Origin: an uncultured Verrucomicrobiae bacterium
GTDB lineage: Bacteria; Verrucomicrobiota; Verrucomicrobiia; Chthoniobacterales; Terrimicrobiaceae
Direction of reading: 5' to 3'
NCBI GenBank assembly: GCA_963706955.1
Contig: CAVPOC010000003.1
Location: 192,001 to 256,000 of the forward strand
Length of the DNA: 64,000 bases
The translations under genes were made by a program, and so were the position numbers. Of this stretch, positions 41,281-61,898 are shown in pieces. Positions within the stretch are counted from its first letter, which is position 1; every line of letters begins with the position of its first letter. The notes under the pieces were generated by a model that ran no database searches, had not been told where the DNA came from, and worked only from the letters and a program-made list of their open reading frames with translations.

Positions 41281-42107
41281 AATCGCACCGCTTTTCTTTT
41301 CTGCGTCTCACTTGCACCGTCTTGACCATCATCATGGCATTGGCGTGGCTCTTTCCCTTATATTGGATCCTGACGACCTCACTTACTGCGGAAAGCGACA
41401 CGATCGCGCTGCCGCCTTCTTTCGTCCCCATACCGCCGAACTTCGAGGCGTTTGCCTATGTCATTGAGAACAGCCCCATCTTCCGCTGGTACTTTAACAC
41501 CGTTCTGGTGGCATCGGTCATCACCGTCGTTTCTATTGTGGTATCACTCATGTGTGCATACGCCCTTTCGATCATGGAGTTCAAGGGCAAGGGGCTGATC
41601 AACGTATGGCTACTCCTCGGCTTCATGATTCCTTTTGGTGCGATGGTCATCCCGCTTTTCATGCTGATGAACCAGATGCACTTGGTGAACTCCCACTTGG
41701 GAGTTATTTTGCCGCAAATTGCGACGCCACTTTCGGTCATTGTTTTCAAACGATTCTTTGACCAGGTTCCTAAGGATTTTCGGGACGCGGCGACGATCGA
41801 CGGCGCCAACGATTTCCACGTTTTATTCAATATCTACATTCCACTCAACTGGAGCATCATCTGGGCGATGGCCATCATCACCTTTATTGGCGCCTGGAAT
41901 AACTTTCTCTGGCCATTTATTGTCACGAATTCGACGCCAATGCTGACAATTCCTGTGGGAATGACACAGGTGCAATCCGCCTATGGTGTGGCCTTCGCGA
42001 AAACATCGGCCGTCGCCGTCATGGCTTCCATTCCCACGGCGTTAGCATACATAATCTTTCAGAAACGGGTCACACAGGGAGTGGTTGCCGCAGCTGGTAT
42101 CAAGTGA
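41277..42107 (+). CDS. Carbohydrate ABC transporter permease
   Basis: DAATIDGA loop; WNNFLWP. Confidence 0.92.
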   Translation: MKSHRFSFLRLTCTVLTIIMALAWLFPLYWILTTSLTAESDTIALPPSFVPIPPNFEAFAYVIENSPIFRWYFNTVLVASVITVVSIVVSLMCAYALSIMEFKGKGLINVWLLLGFMIPFGAMVIPLFMLMNQMHLVNSHLGVILPQIATPLSVIVFKRFFDQVPKDFRDAATIDGANDFHVLFNIYIPLNWSIIWAMAIITFIGAWNNFLWPFIVTNSTPMLTIPVGMTQVQSAYGVAFAKTSAVAVMASIPTALAYIIFQKRVTQGVVAAAGIK

Positions 42108-42314: not shown

Positions 42315-42819
42315 CTAAGCCTGCGCCGCGCCGATTTCCGTGGCCGCCGGCACTTCGATCAATTTGCCGGAACGGACGTCGTAAACGTAACCATAAATCG
42401 GTATTGAGCGTGGAACCAGCGGGTGATAACGAATACGAGCGACATCCGACGATACGCTGCTTGTCTCATCTTCGAAGGTGAGCCAGTTGACAAAGTCACC
42501 AGCATCCGATCCGGGACCTCGACCAACATCCTTCCATTCCCCATGATCGATTTGCGCGGTTTCGAGGCTGTTTCTCACATCACACCGATTGTGGAATGGC
42601 CCTACGGATGGCGTCATCGCTTGCGCGGCCGCCAGCATTTCGAATCACGTGCGCGTCTCCCTCACTTAGGCCCGCGTACTTGGCGGGATCAAGTCGAGCA
42701 TCCATGCACGTCAAAATTGCAAACCGCCGCGCTGGAGGCAGAGGGAGATTTCCCTTGGTCCCAAAGTTTTCAACGTAGTTCTTATTTGCTGCGAGGATTT
42801 CACTGAGAATTTGGCTCAC
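42315..42819 (-). pseudogene. Beta-carbonic anhydrase (clade D, COS-hydrolase-like), disrupted by internal deletion plus micro-inversion
   Basis: [35 protein letters not shown] then frame change to RNSLETA..GYVYDVRSGKL; the HHTDCGM segment is on the + strand at 42578-42598. Confidence 0.85.
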
Positions 42820-42845
42820 AATCAAATGCGGGTTGTTGCGATTGA

Positions 42846-43700
42846 CTATGCCGCAACGTCTGCCGATTCGACAAGCAACCGATCGCGACGAAAGTTGGCA
42901 CCTCTTCCTCGCATTTCTGTGGCAGCAGGGACACCGAGCATTTCTTCTCTCAAAAGATCCATGCAAGTGCGTTTCAGTTTCATGAAATCCTTCGAGACCA
43001 GTGTGTCGATGGTTCGAGGACGCGGAAGAGGCACATCGAAGAGCGCCTTGAGGCGGCCAGGCCGCCGCGTGAGCACAGCGACCCGCGAACCGAGATAGAT
43101 CGCCTCGTCGATATCGTGAGTGACGAACAAGACGGTCATTCCATATTCAGTCCACACTTGCAGGAGCAGTTCTTGCATCATCAGACGCGTCTGCGCGTCT
43201 AGGGAGCTGAAGGGCTCATCCATAAGCATGACCCGCGGCTTGTTCACCAAGACACGCGCCAGACCGACGCGTTGTTGCATGCCCCCGGAGAGCTGGGCGG
43301 GATAATGCCGCCCAAATTCGGAAAGACCGACCTTGCGGAGAATCTCACCAACCATCTGGTAGCGTTGGGCTCGCGGGACGTTCCGGAACTTCAAACCAAA
43401 ATCGACGTTCTGCCACACCAGTTTCCAAGGAAAGAGTGTGGGTTGTTGAAAAACGACGCCACGATCCGGTCCAGGTTTAACCACCTGCTCACCATCGACG
43501 CTTACCTCGCCAGCTTGGGGAGGCTGAAAGCCGGCGATTGTATTGATGAGGCTCGATTTGCCGCAACCGGAAGGTCCGAGGACAGAAAGAAAGTCGCCCG
43601 GACTTAACGTCAACGAGAGGCTTTGCAGTGCAGTGACGGCATTCCGCCCCTCGCCGAAGGCGAGCGTGACGTTCTCCAAAGCGATCGCGCCCCGACTCAT
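42846..43700 (-). CDS. ABC ATP-binding protein (SsuB/TauB/NrtD type)
   Basis: [23 protein letters not shown]; start MSRGAIAL. Confidence 0.93.
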
Positions 43701-44558
43701 CGTGTGCCCTGATTCTGTTGCCACGGAGTCAGCCGCCTTCCGAGAAAGCGAATTAGGGCACTCGAAGCCATCCCCGACACTCCGATAACCAACATCCCGA
43801 CGATGATGTCGGGATATTTCTGCATGGTGTAAGATTCCCAAGTAAAATAGCCGATTCCGAATTGGCCCGAGATCATCTCGGCGGTGACAACCAAGAACCA
43901 GCAGGTCCCCATGCCGATCGTCAGGCCTGTGACAATCGAAGGCATTGCCCCGGGGAGGACAACTTCACGGAATATCGGCCACGTCCCTGCGCCCAAGGAT
44001 TGGGCCGCGTAGATCAACCTTCGGTCAAGATTCTCCACACCATGGATCGTGCTCAGGAGAATGGGAAAGATCGCGCCGAGGAAACAGATGAAGATCATAC
44101 TCTGCTCGGCCGTCGGAAACATAAGGATCGCTAAGGGAATCCAAGCCACTCCCGGAATCGGGCGTAGAACCTCTATCGGTGTCATGATCACATCCTCAAG
44201 CAGACGCGACCGACCGATCAAAAGACCAAGAGGCACGGCGGTCAACAAAGCCAACCCGAAACCAATCGCCACACGCCGGGCGCTATTCGCGAGGTGACGG
44301 AAAGACTTAGGGGCCTGAGCAAATTCAGTCGTTGAAACTGCGACCACGCTCGGCGCCGGGACATGAGCGAAATTGATCAAGAAGTGGATCCTGTTTGTCG
44401 AGGCAAGTTCCCAAAGGGCGATGAAAGCCGCCAGCGCGAGCAGTCGTGTGATGATCCGCCGGAAGGCATCGAGATTCGCCGGAACCGACAATTTCGATGG
44501 CTCGGCTGGTGCTAAGTCATCGATCGGGAGAGCTCGGTGTAGTCAGCGGGTTTGCCAT
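43697..44558 (-). CDS. ABC permease (SsuC/TauC type); probable frameshift near 44525
   Basis: LRPIPGVAWIPLAIL, AAQSLGA, VVTAEMISG. Confidence 0.9.
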
Positions 44559-44575
44559 AACACTGTTCTGGTAGT

Positions 44576-45025
44576 TTAATCTTCGATTAAATTGCCGCCG
44601 CGCCAGGCGGGAAGTCCCGCCCCAATCCATCCCTGGAGGCCGCCGGCCAGCGACCGCACATTCTTGTATCCCATGCGTTGCAGATTATCGGCCGAGAGGG
44701 CCGCACGATGGCCTGCGCCACAGTAAGTGATTATTTCAATGGCGGGATCGGGAGCGTGCTTTTCAATTTCCAGTTCGAGCGTTCCCCGAGCGAGATGCCG
44801 GGCATTCGGAATGTGTCCGCGCCAAAATTCATCTCGTTCGCGCACGTCGATGACCAGCGCGCCGCGCTTAATTGCGGCGACGGTTTCCTCGACCGATACC
44901 TCTGTGATCCTCGAACGTGCCTCCGCGGCTAGCTTGAGGAAGCGTTGGCTCCGCTTCTCTGCGACCTGAAGTCTAGCGAGCTTGAGCAAGACGCTCGTTG
45001 CCCACGAATTTACGAGCTTCGGCAT
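44576..45025 (-). CDS. Single-domain rhodanese (sulfurtransferase); start uncertain
   Basis: IDVRERDE..GHIPNA..YCGAGHRA..LAGGLQGW. Confidence 0.88.
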   Translation of the reverse strand: MPKLVNSWATSVLLKLARLQVAEKRSQRFLKLAAEARSRITEVSVEETVAAIKRGALVIDVRERDEFWRGHIPNARHLARGTLELEIEKHAPDPAIEIITYCGAGHRAALSADNLQRMGYKNVRSLAGGLQGWIGAGLPAWRGGNLIED

Positions 45026-46416
45026 ATGTCAGCAGTTTTCCGTTGTTGGCTTGCGCCCATTTCTCGGCGCGAGATTTCTCGAGGAAGGCGGCGATATCGT
45101 TGCCGGTTCGAATGTACCAGACCTTGTCGGCAAAGAGTTTCAGTCCGGTCTCACGATCGTGCACGAAGGCCACGCGAACTGTCTTGTTATCCTTCTCAAG
45201 CTGATCGAGGGCGAGGAAGGTGCTGGGAACGTCCTTGTAGAGGCGCACTTTCTTCTCGCCCTCTACCCAGATTTGACCGGCGTTATTTACATCGATGATC
45301 TCTTCTCCGAGTGACAAAATCTTTCGCCTCAAAGGGCACTGGCGCGTAGTCCTTCAGACGAGCGTCGTAATCGGCGCCAAATTCTTTCGCCGCCTGGCGA
45401 ATATATTTGTCATCCACATATTCGCTGACCTTGATGTCGTGCGATGTCTTTTTAAGGATCTTGAGAGTTTCAGCTGCACCGGCGATGGCCTTCAGGACCT
45501 CGGGTTTGAAAGTATAGTCACGCGTTTGAATGCCGTGGGGACCATGAAACGCATAGAAAACTTCCGCTTCGATGCCCGTCCATTTTTCGTATTGTTCGGC
45601 CAACCCTTCCGGATCCTCCCGCAAGAGGCGATCTCCCTCCAACGCTGACTTCAGATAGGCAACCACGATCTCGGGATACTTCTCAGCGAAGTCCGAACGC
45701 ACCTGGATACCATGGGTAGTCGGCACGCCCGTGCTGCTGCCATCCAGAATTTTGCGCGCGAAGCCGCGAAACGGGAACAACTCCCCGAAAGGCACAAAGT
45801 TCGCGTGAGCATCAATCTGACCTGATTTGAGAGCCGAACCGCCTACTTCTGGTGTTTGTGTGACGATCGTAATGTCCGTTTCGGGATCCCAATTCTGATC
45901 CTTGACTGCACGAAGCAGAAACGCGTGCGCGGTTGAAGCAAAGGGGACCGAGACGGTCTTGCCCTTAAGTTGCGCTATGTCTTGCACACTAGAATCGCTG
46001 GGAACCAACAGGGCATTGCCCGCGCCGTGCAGACCGGAGGAAAGCGACGCGATGTAAACAGTCTTCACCCCATTGTTCTGGGTCAGAAACGCGTCGTGAC
46101 CCACGATCGAGGGGAAATCCGCCATCGAGACGATATCCAGGCGATTGGCGAGGATCTCGCTATTGAGCTGAGCTCCGGTTGGCAGATTCAGCCAAACGAT
46201 TTCATAAGTGACGTCCTTATATTTGCCATCATGCGGAAGATACTTTTCGAGAAGCTTCAATTCGCGCACGACCGGTCCTCCCGCTGCGCAATTGATCGTC
46301 GTATCTTGCGTCCCTATGGCCACGCGAATGGTCTCGCCTGCTTGAACAAGTGTTAGGGTAAACAGAATAAGAATAGATGTTAGTTTCATAACCTTCAGAG
46401 CTGAATGGGTTTTCAT
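44973..46416 (-). CDS. Sulfonate/nitrate-type ABC substrate-binding protein (AsfC-like) with extra C-terminal domain; frameshift near 45310
   Basis: RVAIGTQDTTINC, MADFP, LKGKTVSVPFASTAHA; continues in ORF 44973-45332. Confidence 0.85.
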
Positions 46417-47358
46417 TAGGATTCGATGACGTGCAAGTCTTCTTCGATTGGCGAAGATGGATTATCCGCGCGGCACGATGACGAACTCGAAGCGACGCGG
46501 CGAGATGTCGCGTCCGCGGAGTCCTGCGCTACGACGAGGAACTTTGCCGTACAGGCGCTTGAACGCGCCCGGAGGTGATATTTGCCGGCGACCTCAAGAT
46601 TGATGGTAGCGCGATAGATGGCCCACGGCTGACAGTTCCACCGAAAATGGGATACGAAAGTCTTCCGATTTGGATTGAACACCTCCAGCGACGCACTTTC
46701 ATTGACGCCCAGACTGACGTTTCCCCACGCATCTTCCGCGCGCACCATCACGGGCAAGATGGCCCCAGCGGTCATCGCCGGGGGGGCAATGATGCGCAGA
46801 GCTGACATCGGACCAGGCTGGATAACGATGTGGTCGACAAGATCGGCTTCAAAGCAGGCAGATGTCCCGTCTGGGCAAACGAAGGCCCGCCAGTGGAACC
46901 CCTCCTCAGCGAAGGTTTGCACCCTGGTCCCCCGGCCACCTCTGCGCTTATCGCCGAGGCGGAGATGAATTAGATCCCCGTCGCGGAGATTGCCACGAAC
47001 GACCGTGACCACGATTGATCTCCTTTCGCCAATTCGTTCGTAGGAGACGGCCAGCGCTGCCATCTGAGCGTTGGAAAACGGCCGTTCACTCGAGCCGAAT
47101 TCGACACTTAGATAATTGTCGGCGGAAGGATCCCGCGTTTGAAAATCCGCCCAATCCGAATCGGAGGCGAAAAGTTATGCTTAGGTTGCCATGCTTGGCC
47201 AAGCCCGCGCTACCCACGCAGTAGCTGAGCTGGAGCTCTTGCCAGCTGCCCGCTTCAAGCACAGCCTTATCAACATGCAAGCTTCCCCAGCGACCGGCTC
47301 TTCTCACCGTGCTCAGGTCAGCTTTGGCTAAGCTCTCGGGAAATGCTGTGAGGCTCAT
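46416..47358 (-). CDS. DUF3604-like N-terminal domain protein, truncated; frameshift near 47165
   Basis: LEAGSWQELQLSY.VG..GL..DSDWADFQT.DP..DNY..LGDKRRGGRGTRVQTF.E..VRAEDAWGN; no metal-binding C-terminal domain. Confidence 0.55.
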
Positions 47359-47393
47359 CTGAAAGTCTGATTGGAATTGCTTTGACGTGGATG

Positions 47394-48314
47394 CTAATCT
47401 CCGGAAGCAGCCAGGCGTTCGATGGCGAGCCGGGCGGATTTACGAACTCCACCGTCCTGGTCGTTGCGAAGTGACTCGAGCCGATCGATCCATCTTGGGT
47501 TCTGCGACTCTCCCAAGGCTATGGCTCCGGCCATTCGTAAATCGGCCAAGTCGTGCGTGAGCAGCCTCGCCACAGCCTCGCCACCATCGACCTGGAGTCG
47601 AGAAAGGCCGAGAGCCGCCTCGCGCACCACCTGCCAAGCTGGATCTTCCAGCGTGGCTATGAGAGCGGCCTTGGCGTCCTCACTCGGGAATCGTCCGAGC
47701 GCAAGTGTGGCTTCGCGACGCACCTCCCAATTGCCGTCGGCCAGCGCCGCAACGAGGTCATCGAAGACGAAGGCATCATCGAATTGCGCCACCGCGGCGA
47801 TCGCCACTTTACGGACTGCCGCATTTTCGTCCCGAAGCGCGGAGCGCAACGCCAGCAAGTGATCGCGCCGTCGATAGTTCGCCACGGCAGTTACCGCTTG
47901 CCGTCGAATCTCTGGCTCCGGATCGCTAAGTCGCCGAACCAAGGCGCCCAAGGCCTCCGCTTCCCGGTGCTCTCGCAATGCAATCAACGCCGCCAGACGA
48001 GTTTCCGCAGCAGAACTCTCGAGGGCAGCCACGAGATGTTCGATCGCGGCAGGATCCTGGAAGGACCGTAACACTTCGCTCGCGAGCAGACTGACTTCCG
48101 CATCCGCGTCAGCCGCCGCTCGCAGCAGTGCTGGGATAGCTGCGGGATCGTTCTCAAGTTGAATCACCTCGATGGCCAGACGGCGGATCGAGGTTTCCGG
48201 ATGCTGCAGAGAGGCGACTAGGAGTTTTGTCGGCAAAGGCTGGCCAGCCTCCAGGCTCTCAGCCAAGGTCAGGAAGATCTGCTGCGTTTGTTCGTCATCA
48301 AGGGTGATGCTCAT
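47394..48314 (-). CDS. HEAT/PBS-lyase repeat protein
   Basis: Repeated L..D....VR..A..ALG units; ATGA overlap with the ferredoxin stop. Confidence 0.88.
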   Translation of the reverse strand: MSITLDDEQTQQIFLTLAESLEAGQPLPTKLLVASLQHPETSIRRLAIEVIQLENDPAAIPALLRAAADADAEVSLLASEVLRSFQDPAAIEHLVAALESSAAETRLAALIALREHREAEALGALVRRLSDPEPEIRRQAVTAVANYRRRDHLLALRSALRDENAAVRKVAIAAVAQFDDAFVFDDLVAALADGNWEVRREATLALGRFPSEDAKAALIATLEDPAWQVVREAALGLSRLQVDGGEAVARLLTHDLADLRMAGAIALGESQNPRWIDRLESLRNDQDGGVRKSARLAIERLAASGD

Positions 48315-48619
48315 CGAATTAGAAAGGGAATTTTCACGGTTATGGCGTTGGTCGGGCAGTCCACTTCGCAAGCCAGGCAATACCAGCAGTCATCATATTT
48401 CATATGCGACTTGCCCGTGGCTGGATTGATCGCGAGGCAGTCCACAGGACAGGACTCCACGCAGATATGACACCCTTTGATACATCGCTCCTCGTGCACT
48501 ACGACCGGCACATCGAAGAGTCGTGCGACCTGGCGGTTGGGCACGGATTTCGCCACCGAAGCGGCTTCGCTTTCCGAGGCAAATTTCAGCCTTCCGGCAA
48601 CAATAGGTTTCGAGCTCAT
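48311..48619 (-). CDS. 2x[4Fe-4S] ferredoxin (AsfB/AprB-like)
   Basis: CIKGCHICVESCP and CWYCLACEVDCP. Confidence 0.92.
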   Translation of the reverse strand: MSSKPIVAGRLKFASESEAASVAKSVPNRQVARLFDVPVVVHEERCIKGCHICVESCPVDCLAINPATGKSHMKYDDCWYCLACEVDCPTNAITVKIPFLIR

Positions 48620-50352: not shown

Positions 50353-50368
50353 GGATCACAGCGAAATA

Positions 50369-50385
50369 GCGACTGAACTGATCGT
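50369..50385. promoter_or_regulatory. Putative Rrf2 operator 1 (GCGAC-N7-ATCGT)
   Basis: agcgactgaactgatcgttattc matches aacgactaaacttgtcgttattc at 56712; just upstream of the flavoprotein ATG. Confidence 0.6.
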
Positions 50386-50430
50386 TATTCGAGACACGGT
50401 GAAAAGGTCAGCTGGCATGGCGAGCGTGTT

Positions 50431-51168
50431 TTAGGCCGGGATGGTGCCGTCGAGGTCGAGAAATTCCTCGACGAAGGAATTGGCGGGGAGGTCGCGGACC
50501 TCGTCAGGAGTGCCGATTTGCTGGACTTCGCCCTTGTCGATAAGGACGACGCGATCGGCGACTTCAAAGGCTTCGTCCTGATCGTGGGTTACGAAGAGAC
50601 TGGTCAGATGGGTGGTGTCGTGGAAGCGGCGCAACCAGTGGCGCAATTCCTTTCGGACTTTGGCATCGAGGGCACCGAAGGGTTCGTCGAGCAGGAGGAC
50701 CTCCGGTTCGATAGCCAAAGCGCGGGCGAAGGCAACACGTTGCCGCTGACCTCCGGAGAGTTGGCTGGGAAGGCGCTTAGCGAACTCGGCGAGTTGAATG
50801 GTCTCGAGGAGTTGCTCGACGCGGGCGCGGATTTGCGGTTCGGGCGGGCGCTGGCCTTTTTTTCGCACCCGGAGCCCGAAAGCGATGTTCTCAAAGACAC
50901 TCAAATGCTGGAAGAGCGCGTAATGCTGAAAGACGAATCCCGCCTTGCGTTGGTAGGCGTTTTGGGAAGTGACATCGCGGTCGCCAAAAAGGATGCGTCC
51001 CTTGTCCGGAAACTCGAGTCCGGCGATAACGCGCAGCAAGGTGGTCTTGCCGGAACCGCTCGGCCCAAGCAGGGCAACAAGCTCTCCGCTCTCGATGGTG
51101 AAATTCACGTGATTGAGTGCGGGGAACCGCGCGAACTTTTTCGTGATGTCGTCGATTTGGATGCTCAT
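50431..51168 (-). CDS. cysA: Sulfate/thiosulfate ABC ATP-binding protein (short form)
   Basis: [32 protein letters not shown]; follows cysT-cysW. Confidence 0.92.
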
Positions 51169-51172
51169 GGTA

Positions 51173-52108
51173 TCATCCTTCTGTTCCGGCTGCCTCCCTC
51201 ACCTGCCGTTCGGTCTGCCATTCGGCATACGTTTTGATGATGAGGGTCAAAAGCGCGAGCACCGAAAGGACCGAGGCGACAGCGAAGGCGGCGGCGAACT
51301 GGTATTCGTTGTAAAGAATTTCGATGTGGAGAGGCATAGTGTTCGTCTTATTGCGAATATGACCAGAGACAACGGAAACCGCACCAAACTCTCCCATCGC
51401 CCGGGCGTTGCAGAGTATCAAGCCATAAATAAGTCCCCACTTAATCTTTGGCAGTGTGACGCGCGAAAAAATCTGCCAGCCATTTGCCCCCAGAGTCATG
51501 GCGGCCTCCTCTTCTTTGTGGCCTTGCGCCTGCATCAGCGGGATCAGACCCCGCGCGACAAAGGGAAAGGTCACGAAGATTGTTGCCAGGATGATGCCAG
51601 GCTCGGCGAAAATAACCTTGATGTTGTGATCATAAAGGAAGCGGGCCAGAAAATTGCTATCTAGCGTCTCCTGACTGGGAAAAAAGAGCGGACCCAGCCA
51701 GCCCTGCCGCCCAAAAATGAGAACATAGATGAGACCGCCGATCACTGGCGAGACCCACAACGGAAGATCAATCAGAGAGATGAGCAGGGAGCGCCCGCGG
51801 AAGGTAAACCGCGTGACCGCCCAGGCGGCGAAAAGGCCGAAGATCGCGTTAAGCGGGACGACGATTGCCGCCGTCAAGAGCGTCAACTGCACGGCGTGAG
51901 CAGTCGCCCGATCTTGAAACGTTTTTAAGAAAACCTGCAGACCCTTCGCAAATGCTTCGTGAAAGACGACAAGCAGAGGGAGGACAAGAAACAGCCCAAA
52001 GAAAACGAGAAGAACCCCCACGAGCAGCCTCTTGATCAACGGCGACTCGGCGGTGGCGCGCCGCGGCGCGACCGGTCTCACGGGAAAAGTTGCGACGGCG
52101 CCCGCCAC
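51173..52108 (-). CDS. cysW: Sulfate ABC permease CysW
   Basis: [42 protein letters not shown] start at 52108. Confidence 0.93.
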
Positions 52109-52935
52109 TAGGCCACCCCCTTTCTCCTGCTGTCCCATGCCTGGAGACCATTGCAAATGAGGAGGATCGCGAACGAAGCCACCAGCATGATAAACCCGAG
52201 CGCGGCCGCACCGCTGTAATCGTACTGCTCGAGCTTCGTGATGATCAAGAGCGGGGTAATCTCAGTTTTGAACGGAAGGTTACCGGAGATAAAAACGACA
52301 GAACCGAACTCGCCCACGGCACGACCGTAAGCCAGCGTGATCCCGGTCAAGATCGACGGCAGCAAAGCGGGAAAGATCACTCTTCGAAAGGTCTGCCATC
52401 GGTTCGCGCCGAGGGTTGCAGCTGCTTCCTCGACATCTGCGGAGAGATCTTGAATGACCGGTTGGACCGTGCGAACCACGAAAGGGAGCCCAATGAAGGT
52501 CAGGGCGACCAGAATGCCGAGTTGGGTGTATGCCACCCTTATGCCGTACGGTTCCAGCAACGACCCGATGGTCCCGTTTTTCGCATAGATAGTGGTGAGG
52601 GCAATTCCCGCGACCGCCGTGGGCAAGGCGAAGGGGAGGTCGACGATGGCATCAAGGACCTTGCGACCCGGAAATTCATAACGGGCAAGCACCCAAGCGG
52701 CGATTACTCCAAAGACCCCGTTGATCAACGCCGCCACGAGCGAAATGCCGAAACTTACATAATAGGAAGCCACGACCCTCGGCTCAGTAATCGTTTTAAA
52801 GAAATGCTCCCATCCCCCGGCAAAGGTCTTTAGCAGAAGGCCGCTAAAGGGGATCAACACAAGAATGCTTAGATACACAAGAGTGTATCCCAGGGATAGG
52901 CCGAAGCCCGGGAGAACACGGCGCGATTTGGCCAT
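52108..52935 (-). CDS. cysT: Sulfate ABC permease CysT
   Basis: VLPGFGLSLG, DLPFALPTAVAGIAL, LPFVVRTVQP. Confidence 0.95.
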   Translation of the reverse strand: MAKSRRVLPGFGLSLGYTLVYLSILVLIPFSGLLLKTFAGGWEHFFKTITEPRVVASYYVSFGISLVAALINGVFGVIAAWVLARYEFPGRKVLDAIVDLPFALPTAVAGIALTTIYAKNGTIGSLLEPYGIRVAYTQLGILVALTFIGLPFVVRTVQPVIQDLSADVEEAAATLGANRWQTFRRVIFPALLPSILTGITLAYGRAVGEFGSVVFISGNLPFKTEITPLLIITKLEQYDYSGAAALGFIMLVASFAILLICNGLQAWDSRRKGVA

Positions 52936-53750
52936 CAGATATTTTGTGCTTCGGAGATCATCACTTTGAAACGATCCAGAATTGTTTGCACGCCCATGAT
53001 GTGTGCCTCCACCTGCGTATCGAAGGCCGCGTGGTGTGGGGTCTCAAAAACAATCTCGAAGGGCCTTGGTTTCTGCTCGGGAGGAGCTGAGAGGATACCG
53101 TCGTAGCCCTGCTCGATGATTCCATTGTTCGCCTCGAAATTGTCGATGCTCTTATCAAAGTTGCGTCGGAGGATCTGCCCGGCGGCCTCGAGCGCCGGTT
53201 CGAGGACATGCCGGGTCAATTCATGTCCTTTGACGAATCCGTAGAGTCCTTCGCTCGTATCATCACTGTGCAGGGCGATGATCCCGTTGAAGTCGAGGTT
53301 GCGAAGCTGTCGCTCGAGAATCTCAACTTCCGGCTCGCTCGAGCCAGTCCAAAAGAGACGGTTCAAGTCGAGACCGCTCCGCGTCCAGCGCGATCCTTCG
53401 ACGTAAGCCCAAGGATTGCAAACTGGGTAGACGAAGAGCTCGTAGCCGCGTGCTCTCTCGGGATCGGCATGCAAACGTTCCAGCAGTTGGACCGCGGCGT
53501 GAATTCCGCTCTCTTCGTCGCCGTGCACCCCGGCGAACACTCCCACTCGCAAGTAGCTTCGCTTTTCGCCTGGACCGGCGAAAAGATAACGTGGGAGACC
53601 CTGGGCGATATTGAGAGAATCTCCATAGGCCAGGTGTGCCGCAAAGAGGTAGTTGGATCCTCGCGCCAGTTCATCGAGCGGACGCAAAAGCGCTCGCAGC
53701 GATCGACGCTGCTTGATGGAAGGACGGAATGTCGACACGTGAATCGCCAT
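52935..53750 (-). CDS. M14 family metallopeptidase (succinylglutamate desuccinylase/aspartoacylase-like)
   Basis: AGVHGDE, PVCNPW, DLNR, IALHSD, VFETP Zn-carboxypeptidase motifs. Confidence 0.85.
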   Translation of the reverse strand: MAIHVSTFRPSIKQRRSLRALLRPLDELARGSNYLFAAHLAYGDSLNIAQGLPRYLFAGPGEKRSYLRVGVFAGVHGDEESGIHAAVQLLERLHADPERARGYELFVYPVCNPWAYVEGSRWTRSGLDLNRLFWTGSSEPEVEILERQLRNLDFNGIIALHSDDTSEGLYGFVKGHELTRHVLEPALEAAGQILRRNFDKSIDNFEANNGIIEQGYDGILSAPPEQKPRPFEIVFETPHHAAFDTQVEAHIMGVQTILDRFKVMISEAQNI

Positions 53751-53751
53751 C

Positions 53752-54735
53752 TTATTTGGCCTGATAAATCTGATCGAAAAATCCGCCATCCGCGAAGTGC
53801 ACCTTTTGTGCCGCTTCCCACCCGCCGAAAACCTCATCCACGCTCACCAGCTTGATCTCCGGAAAAAGCTCAGCAGTCTCGGCGAGCAGCTTCTCGGATC
53901 GCGGCCGGAAATACGAGTGCACAGCCAGTTTCTGCCCGGCGTCCGACCAGAGATATTCGAGATAGTCGGTGGCCAATTGACGCGTACCGCGTCGGTCGAC
54001 GACTTTATCGACGACGCTGACAGGGGCTTCGGCCAGAATGCTCACCGGCGGATAGATGACGTCAAATTTGTCGGGACTGAAAACCTTGGTGATCTGGAGC
54101 ACTTCGCTTTCAAAGGTGAGCAAGACATCGCCGATTTCCTTTTGCACGAAGGTGTTCGTGGCGGCGCGCCCTCCTGTCTCGAGGACCGGAACGTTTCGAA
54201 AGAGCGCTCTGACGAATTGTTCGGCCGCGGCGCCTCCGCCACCTGGACGCAATTTCGCATACGCCCAAGCCGCCAAATAACTATATCGGCCGTTCCCTGA
54301 CGTCTTCGGATTTGGAACAATTACGGAAACCCCCGGGGCGACCAGATCACCCCAGTCTCTGATGCCTTTCGGGTTTCCCTTGCGAACCAGGAAAACGATC
54401 GTCGAAGTGTATGGAGCCGAGTTGTTCGGCAAGCGGGACTTCCAATCCCTGTCGATCAATCCGGCTTGGACGATGGCATCAATGTCCGTTTCCTGGTTCA
54501 TCGTGACCACATCGGCTTCCAATCCATCGATGACGGCGCGGGCTTGTTTGCTCGACCCGCCATTGGAGAGGTCGACCGTCGGGGTAATCCCGTGTTTGAC
54601 TTGGTAGGCGAGCGCGAAGATTTCGTTATATTGCTGGTAGAATTCCCGCGTCACGTCGTAGGAGACGTTCAGAATATTGGAAGGCGCGGCGACCGCAGAG
54701 GCCGCCAGAACAAGGCTAAGCAGCCAATACTTCAT
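53752..54735 (-). CDS. sbp: Sulfate/thiosulfate-binding protein (Sbp/CysP)
   Basis: [30 protein letters not shown]. Confidence 0.92.
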
Positions 54736-55586
54736 GTGCCCTTCTCAATCGGCACACGCACGGAGTTTCCCCACTCCGTCCAAGAGCCGTCATAGTTCTT
54801 CACCGCCGGAAATCCCAGAAGGTAGGTCAGCACAAACCAGGTATGGCTCGAGCGCTCGCCAATCCTGCAATACACGATCGTCTCGTCGGCAGGATTTATG
54901 CCCAAATTTTCAATGTAAATTTTACGAAGTTCATCGGCCGACTTGAAAGTGCCGTCGTCGTTGGCGGCGGTCTTCCAGGGAATGCTGCGCGCTCCCGGAA
55001 TATGCCCTCCGCGCAGCACACCCTCCTGCGGGTATTCGGGCATGTGAGTGATCTCCCCTTTGAACTCGCCCGGTGAGCGTACATCGATGAGCGGCCTCCG
55101 CGCTTGGCTCTGCGCCAGCGCGTCTTCTTTGAAAGCGCGAATCTTGCTATCCAGCCGCGCCGCGGGCACCGGGTAGACACTCTCTGCGAATTTCGGAATT
55201 TCTCGCGTGTAAGGGCGACCTTCAGCTTCCCATTTCGACCGGCCGCCGTTGAGCAGCTTGACCTTTTCGTGCCCGAAAAGTCGAAAGACCCAGAGCGCGT
55301 AGGCCGCCCACCAGTTGGCTTTGTCGCCGTAGAAAATTACGGTTGTCTCGGGCGAAATGCCGTGGCGCGAAGCCAGTTTGGCAAAGGCTTCCGGGGTAAT
55401 ATAATCCCGCTGCACGGGGTCATTTAGATCCGCACGCCAATCGATATGAATCGCATTCGAGATGTGGCCGGTCCCATAGAGGAGAATATCTTCGTTGCTT
55501 TCCACGATCCGAATGTCGGGATCATTGAGGTGCTCGGCAAGCCAGGAGGTCTCGACCAGACTGTCGGGAGTTGTGTAGGTGCTCAT
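54732..55586 (-). CDS. Two-domain thiosulfate sulfurtransferase (rhodanese, SseA/CysA1 type)
   Basis: [15 protein letters not shown] active site, NYDGSWTEW. Confidence 0.93.
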
Positions 55587-55591
55587 ATTAT

Positions 55592-55625
55592 TCTAAGTTT
55601 TAAGTCTTAAGTCTTAGGTTTAAAG
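55592..55625. repeat. Imperfect 7-bp tandem repeat (YTTAAGT)x4-5
   Basis: tctaagt tttaagt cttaagt cttaggt ttaaag. Confidence 0.7.
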
Positions 55626-55670
55626 CGAGGTCTAGAATACTAAGCTTTAGCTGTGTTCAGAGCGTAGCTG

Positions 55671-56669
55671 CTACTTGTTGGCGGTGGCTCCGCTGTAGAT
55701 TTGGTCGAAGGAGCCTCCGTCGACAAAGTGCTCCTTGGTGGCCTTGGTCCAACCGCCAAAGACGTCATTGATGGTGAAAAGCTCGAGCTTTGGATATTGG
55801 CTCGCGTTTTTGGCAAGGATGTCGTTGTTGCTTGGACGAAAGAAATGCTTGGCGGCAATTTCCTGTCCGGTGTCGCTATAGAGGAAAGTCAAGTACTCCG
55901 TGGCCACTTCGCGCGTGCCGCGCTTCTCGACGACCTTGTCGACCACCGTGACAGTCGGTTCGGCGAGGATGCTGATCGAGGGCACGACGATTTCAAAGTC
56001 GTCGCCACGGAGTTTCTTGACCAACAACAACTCGTTTTCCCAGTTGATGAGAACGTCGCCCAACCCCCGCTCCACAAAGGTGGTCGTCGCACCGCGTGCG
56101 CCGGAATCCAGCACGGGAACGTGCTTGAACAACTCACTAATGAACTCCTTTGCTTTTTCTTGAGAGCCATATTTTTTCAAAGCAAACCCCCAGCCGGCCA
56201 AATAATTCCAGCGGGCGACTCCTGAGGTCTTCGGATTAGGCGTGATCACTTCCACACCTGGCTTGATCAAATCTTCCCAATCCTTGATCCCCTTGGGATT
56301 GCCCTTGCGCACCAGGAACGCCAGGGTCGACTGATACGGAGCGCTATTGTGCGGCAATCGCTCCTGCCAGTCCTGCGGCACCAGTTTGCCGTTTTCATAA
56401 AGCGCATCAACGTCTGCCGCCAACGCCAGCGTCACCACGTCGGCTTCCAAGCCGTCGATGACCGCCCGAGCCTGCTTGCTCGAGCCGCCATGGGATTGAT
56501 TGATCGTCACCGTATCCCCGCTCTTCTCCTTCCAGTGTTTCGCAAACGCCTCGTTGTAATCCGCGTAAAACTCCCGCGTCGGATCATACGACACGTTCAG
56601 CAAGGTGGTCTCGCCAGCCTGCACTACCCCCACGAAAACCACCGACACCCACACCCAAAACAGTTTCAT
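55671..56669 (-). CDS. sbp: Sulfate-binding protein Sbp (second paralog)
   Basis: [41 protein letters not shown]. Confidence 0.93.
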
Positions 56670-56676
56670 CCGCGCC

Positions 56677-56730
56677 ACCATATAAGCCGACTTGCGGGCG
56701 TCAACCAGAAAAACGACTAAACTTGTCGTT
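56677..56730 (-). promoter_or_regulatory. Sigma70 promoter TTGACG-16-TATGGT plus putative Rrf2 operator 2 (AACGAC-N7-GTCGTT, 56712-56730)
   Basis: Perfect 6-bp inverted repeat next to the -35; -10 ends 7 nt before the sbp ATG. Confidence 0.65.
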
Positions 56731-57020
56731 ATTCCAAGAAGGCACTCTCAGTGGGCCTAATTCCCAACGTGTTTTTTGGCCATGGGTGCCTGACACCGCG
56801 AGGTGCTTGACTAGGGAGAAGGGGTTTTGGATTACTGCCTAGCTGTCGTCCAGTTGGGATGCTTGAGACCTTCCTGCGTGATTGACCGCAAAAATCGCTA
56901 GTTGCCGCGCTTTGAGCACGTTGAGCCAACTCGCCAGTCAGGACAACCAGATGTTCGCTGAGGGCTTTCCGAATGCGAGAGGGGCCTGAGGCGTATGCGG
57001 AAATTCTTTTTATGGCAGGG

Positions 57021-57660
57021 CTACAAGCGGGAATTGATTTCCGAGCGAAGCGAAGACATTGAAAGTGCGAGGACGAGCAGCGATATGGCGATGATCCAGG
57101 AGCCGAGGACGCGCACGCCTATCCTTACCCAACGAGCTCGCATCGCCAGAGAGGTGTAATAGGCGACGTCGAAAAGTAGAAAAATAACCATCCCCCAGGT
57201 TCCAAGCAACGCCTGGACAAGAAGCCCAGGTGAACCCGCTTCCGGGTTTGAATCAAGCCCGATGGCGAGCGCCGCGGCGAGAAAAAGCAGGCGAGAGGCG
57301 AAACGGGGGATCGACTTCTCCATCGCTACAGGTATGGCGGCACAAAGAGCCAGGGCTATGAGGATCGGCTGATAGACCATGGTGATTTGTCCAGTCGAGG
57401 TGAGAAGGAGGGCAAAGGTCAAACCGGGGACGAAAACCGCGAAGGGTGTCTTTCAAGTCCAAGGGTAATTGTTGTCCAACGAGGAGCCCCAACGCGAGGA
57501 GGACGAGCAGATGAGCAGGAGTTGTCAGAGGGTGCAGGATTCCCGCCGCCAGTCCTTCCAGGCCTTTGATGGGCGTATGAGCGTTAACCGTGGCCGGAAA
57601 GCAGAGAACCAACAACAGGGTGCTTGGCAGCACACTGCCGCGCGACCGGCCGCGCGGCAT
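57021..57660 (-). CDS. HupE/UreJ family membrane protein, frameshift near 57440
   Basis: NAHT..AGILHPLTTPAHLL; C-terminal VRVLGSWIIA. Confidence 0.75.
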
Positions 57661-57662
57661 CC

Positions 57663-58303
57663 TTAGAAGACGTTGAGAAGAAACCCGAGGCCACCGCAGC
57701 GGTAACCGCTCCTCCGGTTCTCACGGCGAGCTTGCCCCAAGGCCAGCGTGCGAGCAGGCCGATCGCAATTCCACTGAGGTGCAGCAAGCCGGTCGCGATG
57801 ACGAAGCCCGCCGCATAAGTTATCACACTCGCTGCCTCGGGAAGTTCCGTCCCGTGCGCATGGCCGTGAAAAATAGCGAAGATTCCTACGATAGCGCCGG
57901 CGATTTTCAGAGGGGGCTTTGCGGCAAAAGCCACCATCAAGCCCAGGATCACGCCCGAAAGTGCGATTCCCGTTTCAACCCCCGGCATAGGAACGCCGAG
58001 CACGCCGAGAACTCCTCCTACCGCCATGACGAGCGGAAAGACAACCGGCAAAATCCAGATCGCGGGAGCGCCCAAGAACGCTCCCCACAATCCCACTGCC
58101 ACCATGGCGACCACATGATCCAATCCAGTCAAGGGATGCGCAAAACCACTAAGAAATCCTCCAATGGCACCACCTCCGGTATGTGCGTTCGCTGTTGCCG
58201 CAGATAGGGCGAGCAGTAGACAGAGGAGAATCGAGGTTGCCGGTCGAGAGTCGTTAGCTTTTCCGGAATTTTTTTCCTGCGAGAATTGCGTTTGAGCAGC
58301 CAC
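57663..58303 (-). CDS. HupE/UreJ family Ni/Co permease; probable frameshift near 57690
   Basis: AHTG..GFAHPLTGLDHVVAMVAVGLWG, FHGHAHGTELP, ATGLLH. Confidence 0.9.
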
Positions 58304-58310
58304 GGATACG

Positions 58311-58339
58311 ACGCTATGTGCGCGGTTTTCTCGAGTCAA
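58311..58339 (-). promoter_or_regulatory. Sigma70 promoter TTGACT-17-TAGCGT
   Basis: -10 ends 7 nt before the in-frame GTG at 58303. Confidence 0.5.
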
Positions 58340-58829
58340 TTGTTTAGAGGGTTGCTTACGAGATCTGGCTGCCGGCTCGTGCGCAAAATCGCCTTGCCGC
58401 CATACAAATAGGACAAAGATGATGCTTTGCTTTCTTAAGAAGCGGTCTGTCGTGCAAATTGCTGGAGAGGGAGGAAGCCTTCCGTCAATGAGCGGCCGAA
58501 ATAGAAGTGCATCGCGGTGATGGGTCAGGCCTTAGTCCGACCCAAGCTCGAGCTTGCCGAGACCAGAGGGGTGCACTAAGCATACGGGATCGCGGACAAT
58601 TGCTTATGGTCGATGCGAAAAGACTTTCGTATATGCGCGCCGAGGTTAAGCGAGATGATTGGGAGGATGCCGTGGGCGAGAACGACCCAAGGGTGCCAAT
58701 GTCAGGAAGGAGCGGATTCAGGAGAAAACGGCAGCCAAATCGATGCCGCGCTCTCCCGAAACGTTCCGATGACGAACACTTCTCCGCGCGGACGCTGCTG
58801 CGGAACCTTGGAGTTTTTTCAGAGATAAG

Positions 58830-59600
58830 TCAGTTGAACGTTCCGAGACCCCAGCGGCGGCGGAGGAAATTTTCCCAAGGGGAGAAGAGGATGCGATCGG
58901 CGACCAGGCCGATGACGACGATGACGATCATGATGGCGACGACCTGGTCCATGGCATGAAGTTCGCGCCCATAGTGGAGGAGCTGACCGAGACCAAAGCC
59001 GGTGAGGATGGTGACGAAGATTTCCGCAGCCATGAGCGAGCGCCAGGCGAAGGCCCAGCCTTGTTTCATGCCGCCGACGAGGTAAGGCAGCGACGCCGGC
59101 AGGATGACTTTTATCCAGGTATGCAAGCCTTTGGAGCCCATGGTGCGAGCGGCGCGAAGATACGTGGGCGGCATCGTGCGGACCCCGTTTTCGGTTGCGA
59201 TGATGACGGACCAAAGGGTGCCCATCACGACGATGAAAAGCATGGCTGCTTCCGTTTGACCGAACCAGAGGAGGGCAAGCGGAACCCAGCAGACACTCGG
59301 AAGCGTTTGGACTCCAAGAGCCAGTAGGCCAATCGTGTCCTGGAAAATCTTTAGACGGGCGGTGAGCAGCCCAAGAGGCACACCGAAGAGTATTCCAATG
59401 AGGTATCCGACGATGAGGCGGCGCATCGTGACGAACGTGGCCGTCAAAAGCGTGCCATCTTGGGCGGACTGCCAGAGATACTCACCGACGAAGAGGGGCG
59501 AGGGCAGAAGAACGGGCGAATACCAACCGGTGCGTGAAAGCGCCTCCCAGAGGACGATGAGCAAGACAAAGAATAGCATCGAGGTGGCGGCACGTTTCAC
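58830..59600 (-). CDS. Sulfonate/nitrate-type ABC permease
   Basis: QTLPSVCWVPLALLWFG, AARTMG, WRSLMAAE. Confidence 0.92.
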   Translation of the reverse strand: MKRAATSMLFFVLLIVLWEALSRTGWYSPVLLPSPLFVGEYLWQSAQDGTLLTATFVTMRRLIVGYLIGILFGVPLGLLTARLKIFQDTIGLLALGVQTLPSVCWVPLALLWFGQTEAAMLFIVVMGTLWSVIIATENGVRTMPPTYLRAARTMGSKGLHTWIKVILPASLPYLVGGMKQGWAFAWRSLMAAEIFVTILTGFGLGQLLHYGRELHAMDQVVAIMIVIVVIGLVADRILFSPWENFLRRRWGLGTFN

Positions 59601-60403
59601 TCGGCCACCTCCTCTCCCTCAGTGAAGCCCTTAAGAGCTGCAGTGATTTCGCTGGAGTATTGGGCGAGCCCTACGCTGTTGATATCGCGTGGGCGCTCAA
59701 GGGTGATCTCGAACTCGCGGCGGATGCGCCCGGGATTTGGGGAGAAGAGCAACACACGATCTCCCAGGCAGGCAGCTTCTCGCACGTTGTGGGTAACGAA
59801 GATGATCGTCTTCCGGCGGGCTTCCCAGATGCGCTGAATATCTCCATAGAGCTGTTCGCGAGTAAGGGCATCGAGAGCGCCGAAAGGCTCGTCCATGAGC
59901 AGGACGCGAGGATTCGGCGCCAGGGCCCGCGCGAGGGCCACACGTTGTTTCATGCCACCGGAAAGCTCATGAATATTGGAATGGGTGAAGCGCTCAAGGC
60001 CAACGAGCTTGAGATAGTAGCTGGCCACTTCGAGGCGTTCCTGAGAATTGAGCCCCGGCTTAAGATTCAGCCCGAAGAGCACATTGCCCATCACGTCGAG
60101 CCAGGGAAAGAGAGCGTGCTCTTGAAACATCATCATGCGATCGCGGCCCGGCTCGACGATCGGCACCCCGCTGGCCAGGACCCTGCCGTGATCCGGCTCC
60201 TCCAGACCCGCGATGATGTTGAGGAGCGTCGATTTGCCGCACCCGCTCTTCCCAACCAAACAGACGAACTCACCTTCGGAGACGCGCAGACTGATATTCT
60301 CCAGTGCCGCCAGGGTGCCGCGTTTGGTCGTAAAGCTTTTGCTAACGTCGAGGACTTCGATGCGGTCCGGCTCGACGTTGGCAAGTTCCTGTTCGAGGCT
60401 CAT
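59597..60403 (-). CDS. Sulfonate/nitrate-type ABC ATP-binding protein
   Basis: [26 protein letters not shown]. Confidence 0.93.
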   Translation of the reverse strand: MSLEQELANVEPDRIEVLDVSKSFTTKRGTLAALENISLRVSEGEFVCLVGKSGCGKSTLLNIIAGLEEPDHGRVLASGVPIVEPGRDRMMMFQEHALFPWLDVMGNVLFGLNLKPGLNSQERLEVASYYLKLVGLERFTHSNIHELSGGMKQRVALARALAPNPRVLLMDEPFGALDALTREQLYGDIQRIWEARRKTIIFVTHNVREAACLGDRVLLFSPNPGRIRREFEITLERPRDINSVGLAQYSSEITAALKGFTEGEEVAE

Positions 60404-61348
60404 GGCGGATTCCAGACGATGTTGGAAAGGTCGATCTTCGCGCGCAGGAAACCAACCAAGCGAGCCTGATCCAGAAAGGTTTGAAACGGCTCGGCGGAGA
60501 TCGTGTCGTCGAAGCGGAGACGCGTCCAGGCCTGCTGAACCAGGGCGAGCGAGATTTCCTTACGTGTGAGGGCAGAGAGTTCATCGCGGACACGGCGTTG
60601 CGCCTCCTCGGGGTGGTCGCGAATCCAGCGTGTGAGCTCCTGGTGGGCCGCCACCAACTTCCGAGCCACCTCGGGACTTCTCGTCAGGAAGTCTTCACGC
60701 GCCGCCAGCACTGTTGTCACGGTGCTTTCTGGCTCGAGAAAGATGCGTCCGCCGGCTTCGCTCGAGAAGTCTGCTGACCCACGGCTCAACCGTCCAAGCG
60801 GCATCCAATTTTCCTTGTTGAAAGAGCAAGAGAATGTCTGGATTGGCCGTCGGGAGGACGCGCGCGTCGCCGCCGACCAGGGTGACGCGGATCCCATTGT
60901 TGATCAGCCAGGCTCGGCACTCGACATCCTGGGTATTGCCCAATTGAGGTGTGGCAATCGTCTTGTCACGAAAGTCCTCGACCTTCGTGATGGTGTCTCC
61001 GCGGACGACCAGCGCCTCGCCGCCTCGCATCGCCCCTGCCACGACCCGTATGTCCCGACCGTTGGCCCGGGCATACGCGTTGACCGTAGGGCTTGGCCCC
61101 ACGTAAGTGAAATCGATCGAGCGGGCAAAAATCGCCTCCATTGCCGACGGCCCAGCGTTGAAGACGAACCATTCAATCGGCAGGCCGACCCGTTCCTCAA
61201 ACCAGCCCCGCCCCTCTCTGCTAAAACTTTTTGCCACGAGCGCATGGGCATGCGTGACGTTAGGAAAAAGCCCAATCCGCAAGCTCTCCGCGGCCGGCGC
61301 GAATGACGACACGGCCAACAGAATCGCCAGGCATACGACGGCTTTCAT
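60400..61348 (-). CDS. Aliphatic sulfonate-type ABC substrate-binding protein (SsuA-like), frameshift near 60765
   Basis: GLFPNVTHAHALV, FNAGP, YVGPSP, ATPQLGNTQD, WTVEPW. Confidence 0.88.
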
Positions 61349-61398
61349 TCATCCATCTTGCCCGCTTGAAAAAGGAGAGCAAGGATCGCTTCCGGTCT

Positions 61399-61863
61399 CT
61401 AAATGCCCTCTCCGTAGATGCCTTGAATCGCCGCAACTTCCGAGTCGGTCACCGGATTGCCGCGCATGACATCGGCCAGGCTGGAGCGATCCATCAACAC
61501 GGCCACCATGTTACGTGCTTGCAGCAACACGCGGCGAAATCGGCAGACGGGCTCCTGGGAACAACGCTTATAGTCGCTGACCGAAACACACGCAATTGGC
61601 GCAAGATAGCCATCGAAGTGGCGGACAACCTCGCCCATCGTAATCTTTCCCGGATTTTTGGCGAGGAGATAACCACCGCGCTTCCCAGCAACGCTATCAA
61701 CCCAGCCGCGCTCCTTCAGGTCTAGCATGATGTGTTCGAGAAAGCGCTTCGGGATATCATTGCGCCTCGCCAGCTCCATGATCGGAATGGGGGGTCCGCC
61801 GTGGTTCTCGACCAGGGTAAAAAGCGCCCGAAGCGCATAGTCGGTTCGCATCGACAACTGCAT
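61399..61863 (-). CDS. Rrf2 family transcriptional regulator (IscR/CymR-like, three Cys)
   Basis: RTDYALRAL..IPKRFLEHI..V.S..GKRGGY.LA..PIAC..C..C. Confidence 0.92.
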   Translation of the reverse strand: MQLSMRTDYALRALFTLVENHGGPPIPIMELARRNDIPKRFLEHIMLDLKERGWVDSVAGKRGGYLLAKNPGKITMGEVVRHFDGYLAPIACVSVSDYKRCSQEPVCRFRRVLLQARNMVAVLMDRSSLADVMRGNPVTDSEVAAIQGIYGEGI

Positions 61864-61870
61864 CGAAAGC

Positions 61871-61898
61871 ACGATAAAGGAAATCGTCATTCAGTCAA
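61871..61898 (-). promoter_or_regulatory. Sigma70 promoter TTGACT-16-TATCGT overlapped by putative Rrf2 operator 3 (ACGAT-N7-ATCGT, 61871-61887)
   Basis: Palindrome covers the -10; ATG follows 7 nt after the -10. Confidence 0.65.

Follow-up and report, generated by a model that had tools for sequence, protein, structure and literature searches.

Enzymes of the adenosine 5'-phosphosulfate (APS) and 3'-phosphoadenosine 5'-phosphosulfate (PAPS) reductase group pass a sulfonyl group to flavin N5 and then free sulfite, and Trp206 and Tyr207 of the PAPS reductase bind flavin adenine dinucleotide (FAD), as PMC10322725 describes. Another flavoprotein–ferredoxin–binding protein set in sulfur scavenging is AsfABC (P. 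putida S-313; C. metallidurans Rmet_4334/5), of which asfA is needed for arylsulfonate use, and Asf complements ssu, as stated in PMC4267179. A further family, NF006131/PRK08275, which also occurs in the fused form PRK13800, bears the database label of a succinate dehydrogenase/fumarate reductase subunit; in the largely open-access literature searched, we found neither a characterisation of this family and its module nor a substrate. Here we analyze a PRK08275 flavoprotein and its gene cluster in a window of 64,000 nucleotides, the whole stretch of DNA studied, on contig C3 of a genome of 4.16 Mb and 92.5% completeness. The genome belongs to a Terrimicrobium-like verrucomicrobium from soil: the nearest named record that bears the flavoprotein is a Terrimicrobium metagenome-assembled genome (98% identical), and the matching sequencing runs are soil and rhizosphere metagenomes.

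Judged by its sequence, the stretch is a real, genus-conserved sulfur-starvation cluster in which ordinary sulfate-uptake genes stand together with a widespread, uncharacterised Apr-like module. We give a probability of about 0.5 to the reading that this module would carry out a ferredoxin-driven, oxygen-independent release of sulfite from a small imported heteroatom-linked X-SO3 compound (sulfamate, thiosulfate or an S-sulfo compound). The original prediction had proposed a role in sulfur scavenging, an APS-reductase-like enzyme with an importer of its own, and the absence of an oxygenolytic desulfonase; the first two are supported by our analysis, and no such desulfonase was found in the cluster.

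The flavoprotein resembles APS and PAPS reductases

NF006131/PRK08275 was the only family whose cut-off the flavoprotein passed (998.6 bits, cut-off 587), whereas it missed those of AprA (TIGR02061, 188.3 versus 641.75 bits), of the PAPS-reductase-like family (NF005331, 293.8 versus 557 bits) and of SdhA, FrdA and NadB, whose dicarboxylate motif Q-x-H-P-T reads Q-V-N-P-L here. By sequence and by predicted fold, the nearest solved structures are the M. thermolithotrophicus PAPS reductase 8a8o (E 3e-68; TM 0.75) and APS reductases. With 8a8o and dissimilatory AprAB (1jnr, 2fja) it shares the fold, the combination of FAD with a 2x[4Fe-4S] partner containing C-W-x-C, and the Asn and His of the sulfite site, and with 8a8o also the assimilatory context. 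It differs from both in its low identity (approximately 27% in the structural alignment), a short beta subunit, an extra HEAT partner, a dedicated importer, and a host that has a normal CysH.

Asn62 aligns with Asn74 of the A. fulgidus enzyme and His356 with the His of the PAPS reductase GGHG motif. At the position of Arg265, however, there is Leu247, and the FAD-binding Trp206/Tyr207 pair is replaced by Tyr216/Glu217, so that AprA Trp234 is not retained. All of these are invariant in 46/46 sequences, as are Asp59, His127, Asn245, Arg324, Arg327 and His385. In APS reductase (A. fulgidus numbering), Asn74 and His398 form the sulfite site, and the cationic Arg265 binds the sulfonyl oxygens. The ferredoxin carries two cluster motifs and C78-W79-Y-C81, and thus a Trp between the clusters as in AprB. 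A complex prediction of flavoprotein and HEAT protein (score 0.01) was not used as evidence. Many further uncharacterised Apr-like clades (P0125-P0137 and others; 30–44% identity) also have no Arg265 equivalent, and several share an E-R-P motif with PRK08275.

The locus had also been likened to AsfABC. In a quick tree of 52 sequences, PRK08275 formed a single clade (100) near the PAPS-reductase-like clade, and AsfA was distant on a long branch. The AsfA comparator was not that of P. putida S-313, but a candidate in C. metallidurans, the flavoprotein of the flavoprotein–ferredoxin pair at 928–930 kb of the chromid. Its pairing with a ferredoxin gene and its place relative to TauD loci identified it as Rmet_4334, which interpolation puts near 923 kb (PMC2864759). 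Since the identity is 25% over 404 residues (E 2e-13) and the branches are separate, the flavoprotein is not AsfA on sequence grounds, and the missed cut-offs and the Leu at the Arg265 position mean that it is not AprA either. A first CH34 candidate for AsfA had been dropped because it resembles the tricarballylate dehydrogenase TcuA, and L118 was rejected as comparator by its position.

It is very improbable that flavoprotein and ferredoxin form an AsfAB-like electron-transfer pair serving a separate desulfonating oxygenase. The shared superfamily, the same flavoprotein–ferredoxin–binding protein layout and the requirement of asfA for arylsulfonate use would fit such a role, but AsfA lies on another branch and does not keep the Apr-type Asn/His, the CH34 pair has no adjoining HEAT gene, and Asf needs ssu (PMC4267179), whereas no SsuD was found here. 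Two luciferase-like genes of the genome were rejected as desulfonases and are unrelated, one being a polyketide synthase-fused domain and the other a glyoxalase-linked gene.

Sulfur assimilation and desulfonation genes in the genome

As had been predicted, none of the proteins of the stretch matched the SsuD, SsuE, TauD or sulfatase families. No SsuD (TIGR03565) was found in any of the 19 genus members analyzed, this 92.5%-complete genome included; TauD was not found in this genome and is present in 3/19, and Xsc stayed below the cut-off in this genome. For sulfatases, the predicted absence holds only within the stretch, as there are five matches elsewhere in the genome. CysI, CysH, CysD, CysN, a cysteine-synthase-type enzyme and an APS kinase are also encoded elsewhere, and therefore the flavoprotein is not needed for sulfate.

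The lack of an SsuD match, the scarcity of TauD and the sub-threshold Xsc would suit an enzyme that takes the place of SsuD and TauD, either by cleaving C-S bonds reductively as a desulfonase or by activating a carbon sulfonate through redox chemistry, as would the best matches of the module's binding protein, which are alkanesulfonate and taurine binders. We nevertheless regard this as quite improbable. By established chemistry, a carbanion leaves poorly upon N5 attack; the family is also found in Pseudomonas and Burkholderia, where SsuD is generally present; and the members of the genus without the enzyme are likewise without SsuD. The SsuABC-like importer at 58830-61348 is kept across the genus, with or without the flavoprotein, though SsuD was found in 0/19 genomes.

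A palindrome suggests an Rrf2 sulfur regulon

The proposed control by Rrf2 is likely in view of a conserved operator-like palindrome. This motif, ACGAY-N7-RTCGT flanked by A/T, emerged from an alignment of upstream regions, and a scoring matrix trained only on eight rrf2 and sbp sites of relatives found six sites of at least 24 bits (24–32) in the genome, whereas 20 shuffled genomes reached 22.8 at most. These sites precede rrf2, sbp1, the flavoprotein gene, the cysI operon (cysIHDN and cysteine synthase), an OprB porin gene with an M14-like gene, and the gene of an APC-type permease. As the boxed sites exceed the shuffled background and include the cysI operon, Rrf2 control of sulfur genes appears likely. 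Within Verrucomicrobia, the box is found before the flavoprotein gene of the same-genus relatives (Table 1), before a unit of carbonic anhydrase and flavoprotein in a Spartobacteria locus, and directly before a stand-alone carbonic anhydrase gene in G024; in seven verrucomicrobial loci that are less closely related, it was not found.

The Rrf2 protein of the stretch passes TIGR00738 and is below the cut-offs of the CymR, IscR and NsrR models. It likely binds the box and represses, because it is the sole Rrf2 protein over the cut-off in the genome and because the box overlies its own promoter-like sequence. These data support sulfur control of the enzyme and of the carbonic anhydrase as separate members of the predicted regulon, of which we found no verrucomicrobial account in the literature searched. 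The three boxes outside the window, at G000:C3:86577 (OprB-family porin and M14-like gene), G000:C3:99800 (cysI operon) and C13:10476 (APC-type amino-acid permease), outline a candidate genome-wide sulfur regulon.

Conserved partners, importer and favored mechanism

The PRK08275 family is very widespread, with thousands of protein clusters and, in the species genomes of GTDB, at least 587 stretches that match. For the neighborhood survey we used the best 80 of these with 10-kb flanks and counted by tblastn. Without L018 (2.2 kb, 98% identical, labelled Acidobacteria), they split into 15 loci of Verrucomicrobiota and 64 others, which are mostly Burkholderiaceae and thus not independent. Ferredoxin was linked to the flavoprotein in all 79 loci (15/15 and 64/64) and HEAT in 77 of them (14/15 and 63/64). 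The core partners are the same in Proteobacteria, Cyanobacteria, Actinobacteria and Verrucomicrobia; the Tsukamurella flavoprotein, with approximately 890 residues, is as large as the HEAT-fused PRK13800 form. Other partners differ. A GntR gene accompanies 61/64 of the other loci and 3/15 of the verrucomicrobial ones, and DUF971 61/64 and 0/15, respectively. The module of the window has neither of the two and is wired into the predicted Rrf2-type sulfur regulon between cysTWA and the beta-carbonic anhydrase gene. No hupE gene was linked in either group (0/15, 0/64), and the gene similar to the N-terminal part of DUF3604 proteins is present in just 2/8 same-genus flavoprotein loci.

The module's binding protein remains below the SsuA cut-off (TIGR01728, 114.7 versus 163.5 bits). 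Its fold, predicted from the intact G001 copy with a predicted local distance difference test score of 90.8, is nearest to SsuA and TauA (Z 30.4 and 29.4). The C-terminal domain is NosL-like (Pfam NosL over the cut-off in one homologue; 7og7 with Z 13.7 and root-mean-square deviation 2.1); this tail lies at 44973-45350 of the window and also occurs in L029 and L073.

In the mechanism that we favor, sulfur shortage would lift the Rrf2 repression and switch on the uptake cluster, and the SsuA-fold protein would import the X-SO3 substrate. FAD would receive its electrons from the 2x[4Fe-4S] subunit, and N5 of the reduced flavin would attack the sulfonyl sulfur as in APS and PAPS reductases, with X leaving. 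Decay of the flavin–sulfite adduct would then supply sulfite to CysI and cysteine synthase. Rhodaneses, sulfate importer and carbonic anhydrase would be co-regulated neighbors and not required steps. Cleavage of X-SO3 seems the simplest reading because the Asn/His pair and the Trp-containing ferredoxin are kept, the Arg is lost, acidic residues are gained, there is a dedicated oxyanion-type importer, and the module would be co-regulated with sulfite reductase.

Several points weigh against this reading. With the loss of the Arg265 equivalent, which binds the sulfonyl oxygens in APS reductase, the sulfite chemistry itself may not be kept; the position as sister group of PAPS reductases has a support of only 91 in the Shimodaira–Hasegawa-like approximate likelihood-ratio test of the quick tree; the binding protein is nearly as close to nitrate and bicarbonate binders (Z 29.2 and 28.5); and the importer is absent from 27/64 non-verrucomicrobial loci, which speaks against a strictly imported substrate. 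This last point, together with the retention of ferredoxin and HEAT in such loci, would agree with the same chemistry on a substrate that is present inside the cell or enters through CysTWA (thiosulfate, or S-sulfocysteine from cysteine synthase), for which the dedicated importer would be optional. The two nearby rhodaneses and the location of the module, which in the genus and also in two loci of Opitutaceae comes behind cysA or an sbp-cysTWA block, point in the same direction. We still consider this unlikely, since the dedicated binding protein with its NosL-like tail is highly conserved from Verrucomicrobia to Proteobacteria (orthologues in 14/15 verrucomicrobial and 37/64 other loci), similar importers are annotated beside the enzyme in cyanobacteria and an actinomycete, and the link to cysTWA was seen in Verrucomicrobia only (cysT in 6/15 versus 0/64).

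Among 12 annotated plasmid neighborhoods, the module is accompanied by a TauE sulfite exporter in three and by FdxA and ferredoxin-NADP reductase in one; Mrp occurs in three of cyanobacteria and an amidase in two. In P. putida, a GntR–oxidoreductase–ferredoxin unit has been linked with the sulfur iModulon of CysB (10.1101/2022.01.11.475908). From the matching gene order in the Pseudomonas loci L053 and L060 we infer that this unit is an orthologue. The locus tags PA2292-PA2299 and PP_0204-6 are candidate orthologues.

The module is present in 9/19 genomes of the genus and in 4/151 of an order-wide sample. In G017 and G009 it is gone, with an ATPase remnant left behind cysA, and in G004 the carbonic anhydrase gene directly follows cysA. 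A transposase-like open reading frame separates cysA from the flavoprotein gene in G011 (L096:6675-7661), and the flavoprotein gene of G013 is internally deleted (L100:10772-11808); the module is therefore decaying in parts of the genus. Genes whose motifs suggest encapsulin-, cysteine desulfurase- and serine acetyltransferase-like proteins adjoin the cluster in G006 (L136:13657-17812) and the module in several Paraburkholderia loci (L049, L061, L077, L086).

Carbonic anhydrase and carbonyl sulfide

The original prediction had joined flavoprotein, rhodanese and a hydrolase of carbonyl sulfide (COS) into one pathway. A synteny survey had been set beforehand as its test, and outside Verrucomicrobia neither carbonic anhydrase (0/64) nor rhodanese (a single-domain one in 1/64, a 33% match 9 kb away; a tandem one in 0/64) proved to be conserved with the flavoprotein, so that the outcome named in advance as refuting the link is the one obtained. 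In Verrucomicrobiota the respective numbers are 5/15, 7/15 and 3/15. The 12 plasmid neighborhoods, whose annotation is incomplete, also list neither of the two. Within the genus, carbonic anhydrase and enzyme are lost independently: of nine carriers of the enzyme, two have an intact carbonic anhydrase gene, three a broken one, and in four none was found, whereas six genomes have it without the enzyme. The single pathway is hence hardly credible, even though its genes would all be co-transcribed behind box 3, carbonic anhydrase and flavoprotein adjoin each other in the Spartobacteria locus, and the intact carbonic anhydrase resembles COS/CS2 hydrolases (E 2.5e-29 and 4e-27).

In the window, approximately 105 nt of the beta-carbonic anhydrase gene are swapped for approximately 25 unrelated nt at ~42604. 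Enzymes of this group bind zinc through Cys and His-x-x-Cys (PMC8209446), and because the replacement takes out the segment with H-x-x-C, the COS-hydrolase-like enzyme is predicted to be dead in this strain. A contig of run X1 shows the deleted form (498 nt, 0 differences), and X1 may be the source sample; the contig of run X7 no longer fits from 42604 onwards. The 25-nt sequence has no further copy in the genome. The full-length gene of the nearest relative contains an internal stop, and the G010 copy is broken too. The host genome has two further beta-carbonic anhydrases.

The copies in G001 and G003 are intact and retain the Cys and H-x-x-C, like clade D beta-carbonic anhydrases and COS hydrolases (3vqj, 3ten; fungal COSase). 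The protein is similar to 1ylk, 3vqj, 3ten and 1g5c, but it is closer to the carbonic anhydrases 5ztp and 6jqc. A role in COS use is not borne out in this genome, whereas in relatives with an intact gene COS scavenging is plausible as a separate arm, because the carbonic anhydrase would there belong to this regulon independently of the flavoprotein. A fungal COSase sustains growth with COS as sulfur source, as reported in PMC10880591. The stand-alone, intact beta-carbonic anhydrase gene of G024 (L142:8566-9172), which is preceded by a box of its own and has no flavoprotein gene in its vicinity, is the best candidate for a COS scavenger.

Organization of the window

The claim of more than 20 co-oriented genes on the minus strand agrees with our count of 22 in the claimed order between 42315 and 61863 (Table 1), and the claimed overlaps of stop and start codons are seen at 9/21 junctions. 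The view of a single island-like unit was not borne out: the stretch consists of three units, each with its own palindrome at its head. Its GC content of 55–59% is the same as in the remaining window, and composition thus gives no support for horizontal acquisition.

Table 1. Genes and palindromic boxes of the cluster, in window coordinates.
Feature	Position	Strand	Remarks
Box 1, operator-like palindrome ACGAT-N7-ATCGT	61867..61891		directly before rrf2, flanked by TTGAC and TATCGT promoter-like hexamers; 24.6 bits; kept in relatives
Rrf2-family regulator	61399..61863	-	TIGR00738; three Cys (C-x8-C-x5-C)
NitT/TauT (SsuA-like) binding protein	60400..61348	-	1-nt break ~60762
SsuB-like ABC ATPase	59597..60403	-
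SsuC-like ABC permease	58830..59600	-
HupE/UreJ protein 1	57584..58339	-	local insertion, not in relatives' loci
HupE/UreJ protein 2	57021..57660	-	frame break ~57420
Box 2, palindrome	56709..56733		before sbp1; 31.9 bits, top score of the genome
Sulfate-binding protein Sbp 1	55671..56681	-	NF008022/TIGR00971 over cut-off
Tandem-domain rhodanese, thiosulfate sulfurtransferase type	54732..55586	-	CRIGER loop
Sulfate-binding protein Sbp 2	53752..54735	-
M14/AstE-AspA-like zinc hydrolase	52935..53750	-	Verrucomicrobia-typical; approximate start
cysT, cysW, short cysA (245 aa), sulfate/thiosulfate ABC transporter	50431..52935	-	TIGR02139, TIGR02140, TIGR00968 over cut-off
Box 3, palindrome	50365..50389		directly before flavoprotein gene; kept there in 8/8 same-genus relatives
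AprA-like FAD flavoprotein, NF006131/PRK08275	48616..50352	-	578 aa, intact
2x[4Fe-4S] ferredoxin	48311..48619	-	AprB-like C-W-x-C motif; no long C-terminal tail
HEAT-repeat protein	47394..48314	-	fused to flavoprotein in PRK13800 actinobacterial forms
Protein like N-terminal part of DUF3604 proteins	46416..47358	-	1-nt break ~47165
SsuA/TauA-fold binding protein with NosL-like C-terminal domain	44973..46416	-	1-nt break ~45312
Single-domain rhodanese	44576..45025	-	CGAGHR loop
ABC permease and ATPase of the module's importer	42846..44491	-
Beta-carbonic anhydrase, predicted pseudogene, COS/CS2-hydrolase-related group	42315..42822	-	internal replacement deletes H-x-x-C

Five genes of the stretch are interrupted, which the original prediction did not mention. 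Apart from the carbonic anhydrase gene, these are four genes with 1-nt breaks, which are probably consensus errors of the assembly, as contigs from other runs do not have the extra base (absent at 60762 in 3/4 runs and at 47163/6 in 4/4), the reading frames of the nearest relative are unbroken at 47165 and 45312, and rpoC is likewise split in this assembly. The contig pieces of other runs across the hupE2 and binding-protein breaks have one gap each.

Several side aspects of the layout were observed. An L,D-transpeptidase gene (YkuD, 62185-62784), kept in relatives, lies upstream, and an arabinofuranosidase gene and a sugar ABC importer lie downstream on the plus strand (37515-42107). CysA (50431-51168) has 245 residues here and in relatives, compared with 362 positions of the PRK10851 CysA model. 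The HupE/UreJ pair (Ni/Co transporter family; 57021-58339) is a species-level insertion without a box, and the contigs from all four compared runs omit 105 nt at 58464-58568. M14/AstE-like hydrolase genes (52935-53750; L015, L022; G000:C3:88306-89100) recur by sbp-cysTWA and by the boxed porin gene in Verrucomicrobia, and Opitutaceae loci have two copies. Elsewhere in the genome, at G000:C3:38562-39943, another tandem rhodanese with 71% identity is encoded, paired with a SufE-like gene.

Discussion

A bolder version of the favored mechanism, which we put forward only tentatively and with more doubt than confidence, concerns the whole family. PRK08275 modules might be an undescribed oxygen-independent sulfur route of many aerobes, in which a ferredoxin-fed cousin of APS reductase would cleave nucleotide-free X-SO3 compounds, for example at the N-S bond of sulfamate, or perhaps even C-S bonds. 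In Terrimicrobium-like soil Verrucomicrobia, an unnoticed Rrf2 regulon would then put this route, and in relatives also a COS-hydrolysing carbonic anhydrase, in place of SsuD and TauD.

New in the present analysis are the evidence for a regulon, a regulator that differs from that of other loci, and a module that appears to be co-regulated with sulfate assimilation in a genus in which no SsuD was found. This co-regulation narrows the hunt for the substrate to a short panel of X-SO3 compounds, and the palindrome is a candidate for the operator through which soil Verrucomicrobia would control their sulfur genes. The relatives with an intact carbonic anhydrase would, in addition, provide a candidate case of heterotrophic bacteria that scavenge COS for sulfur.

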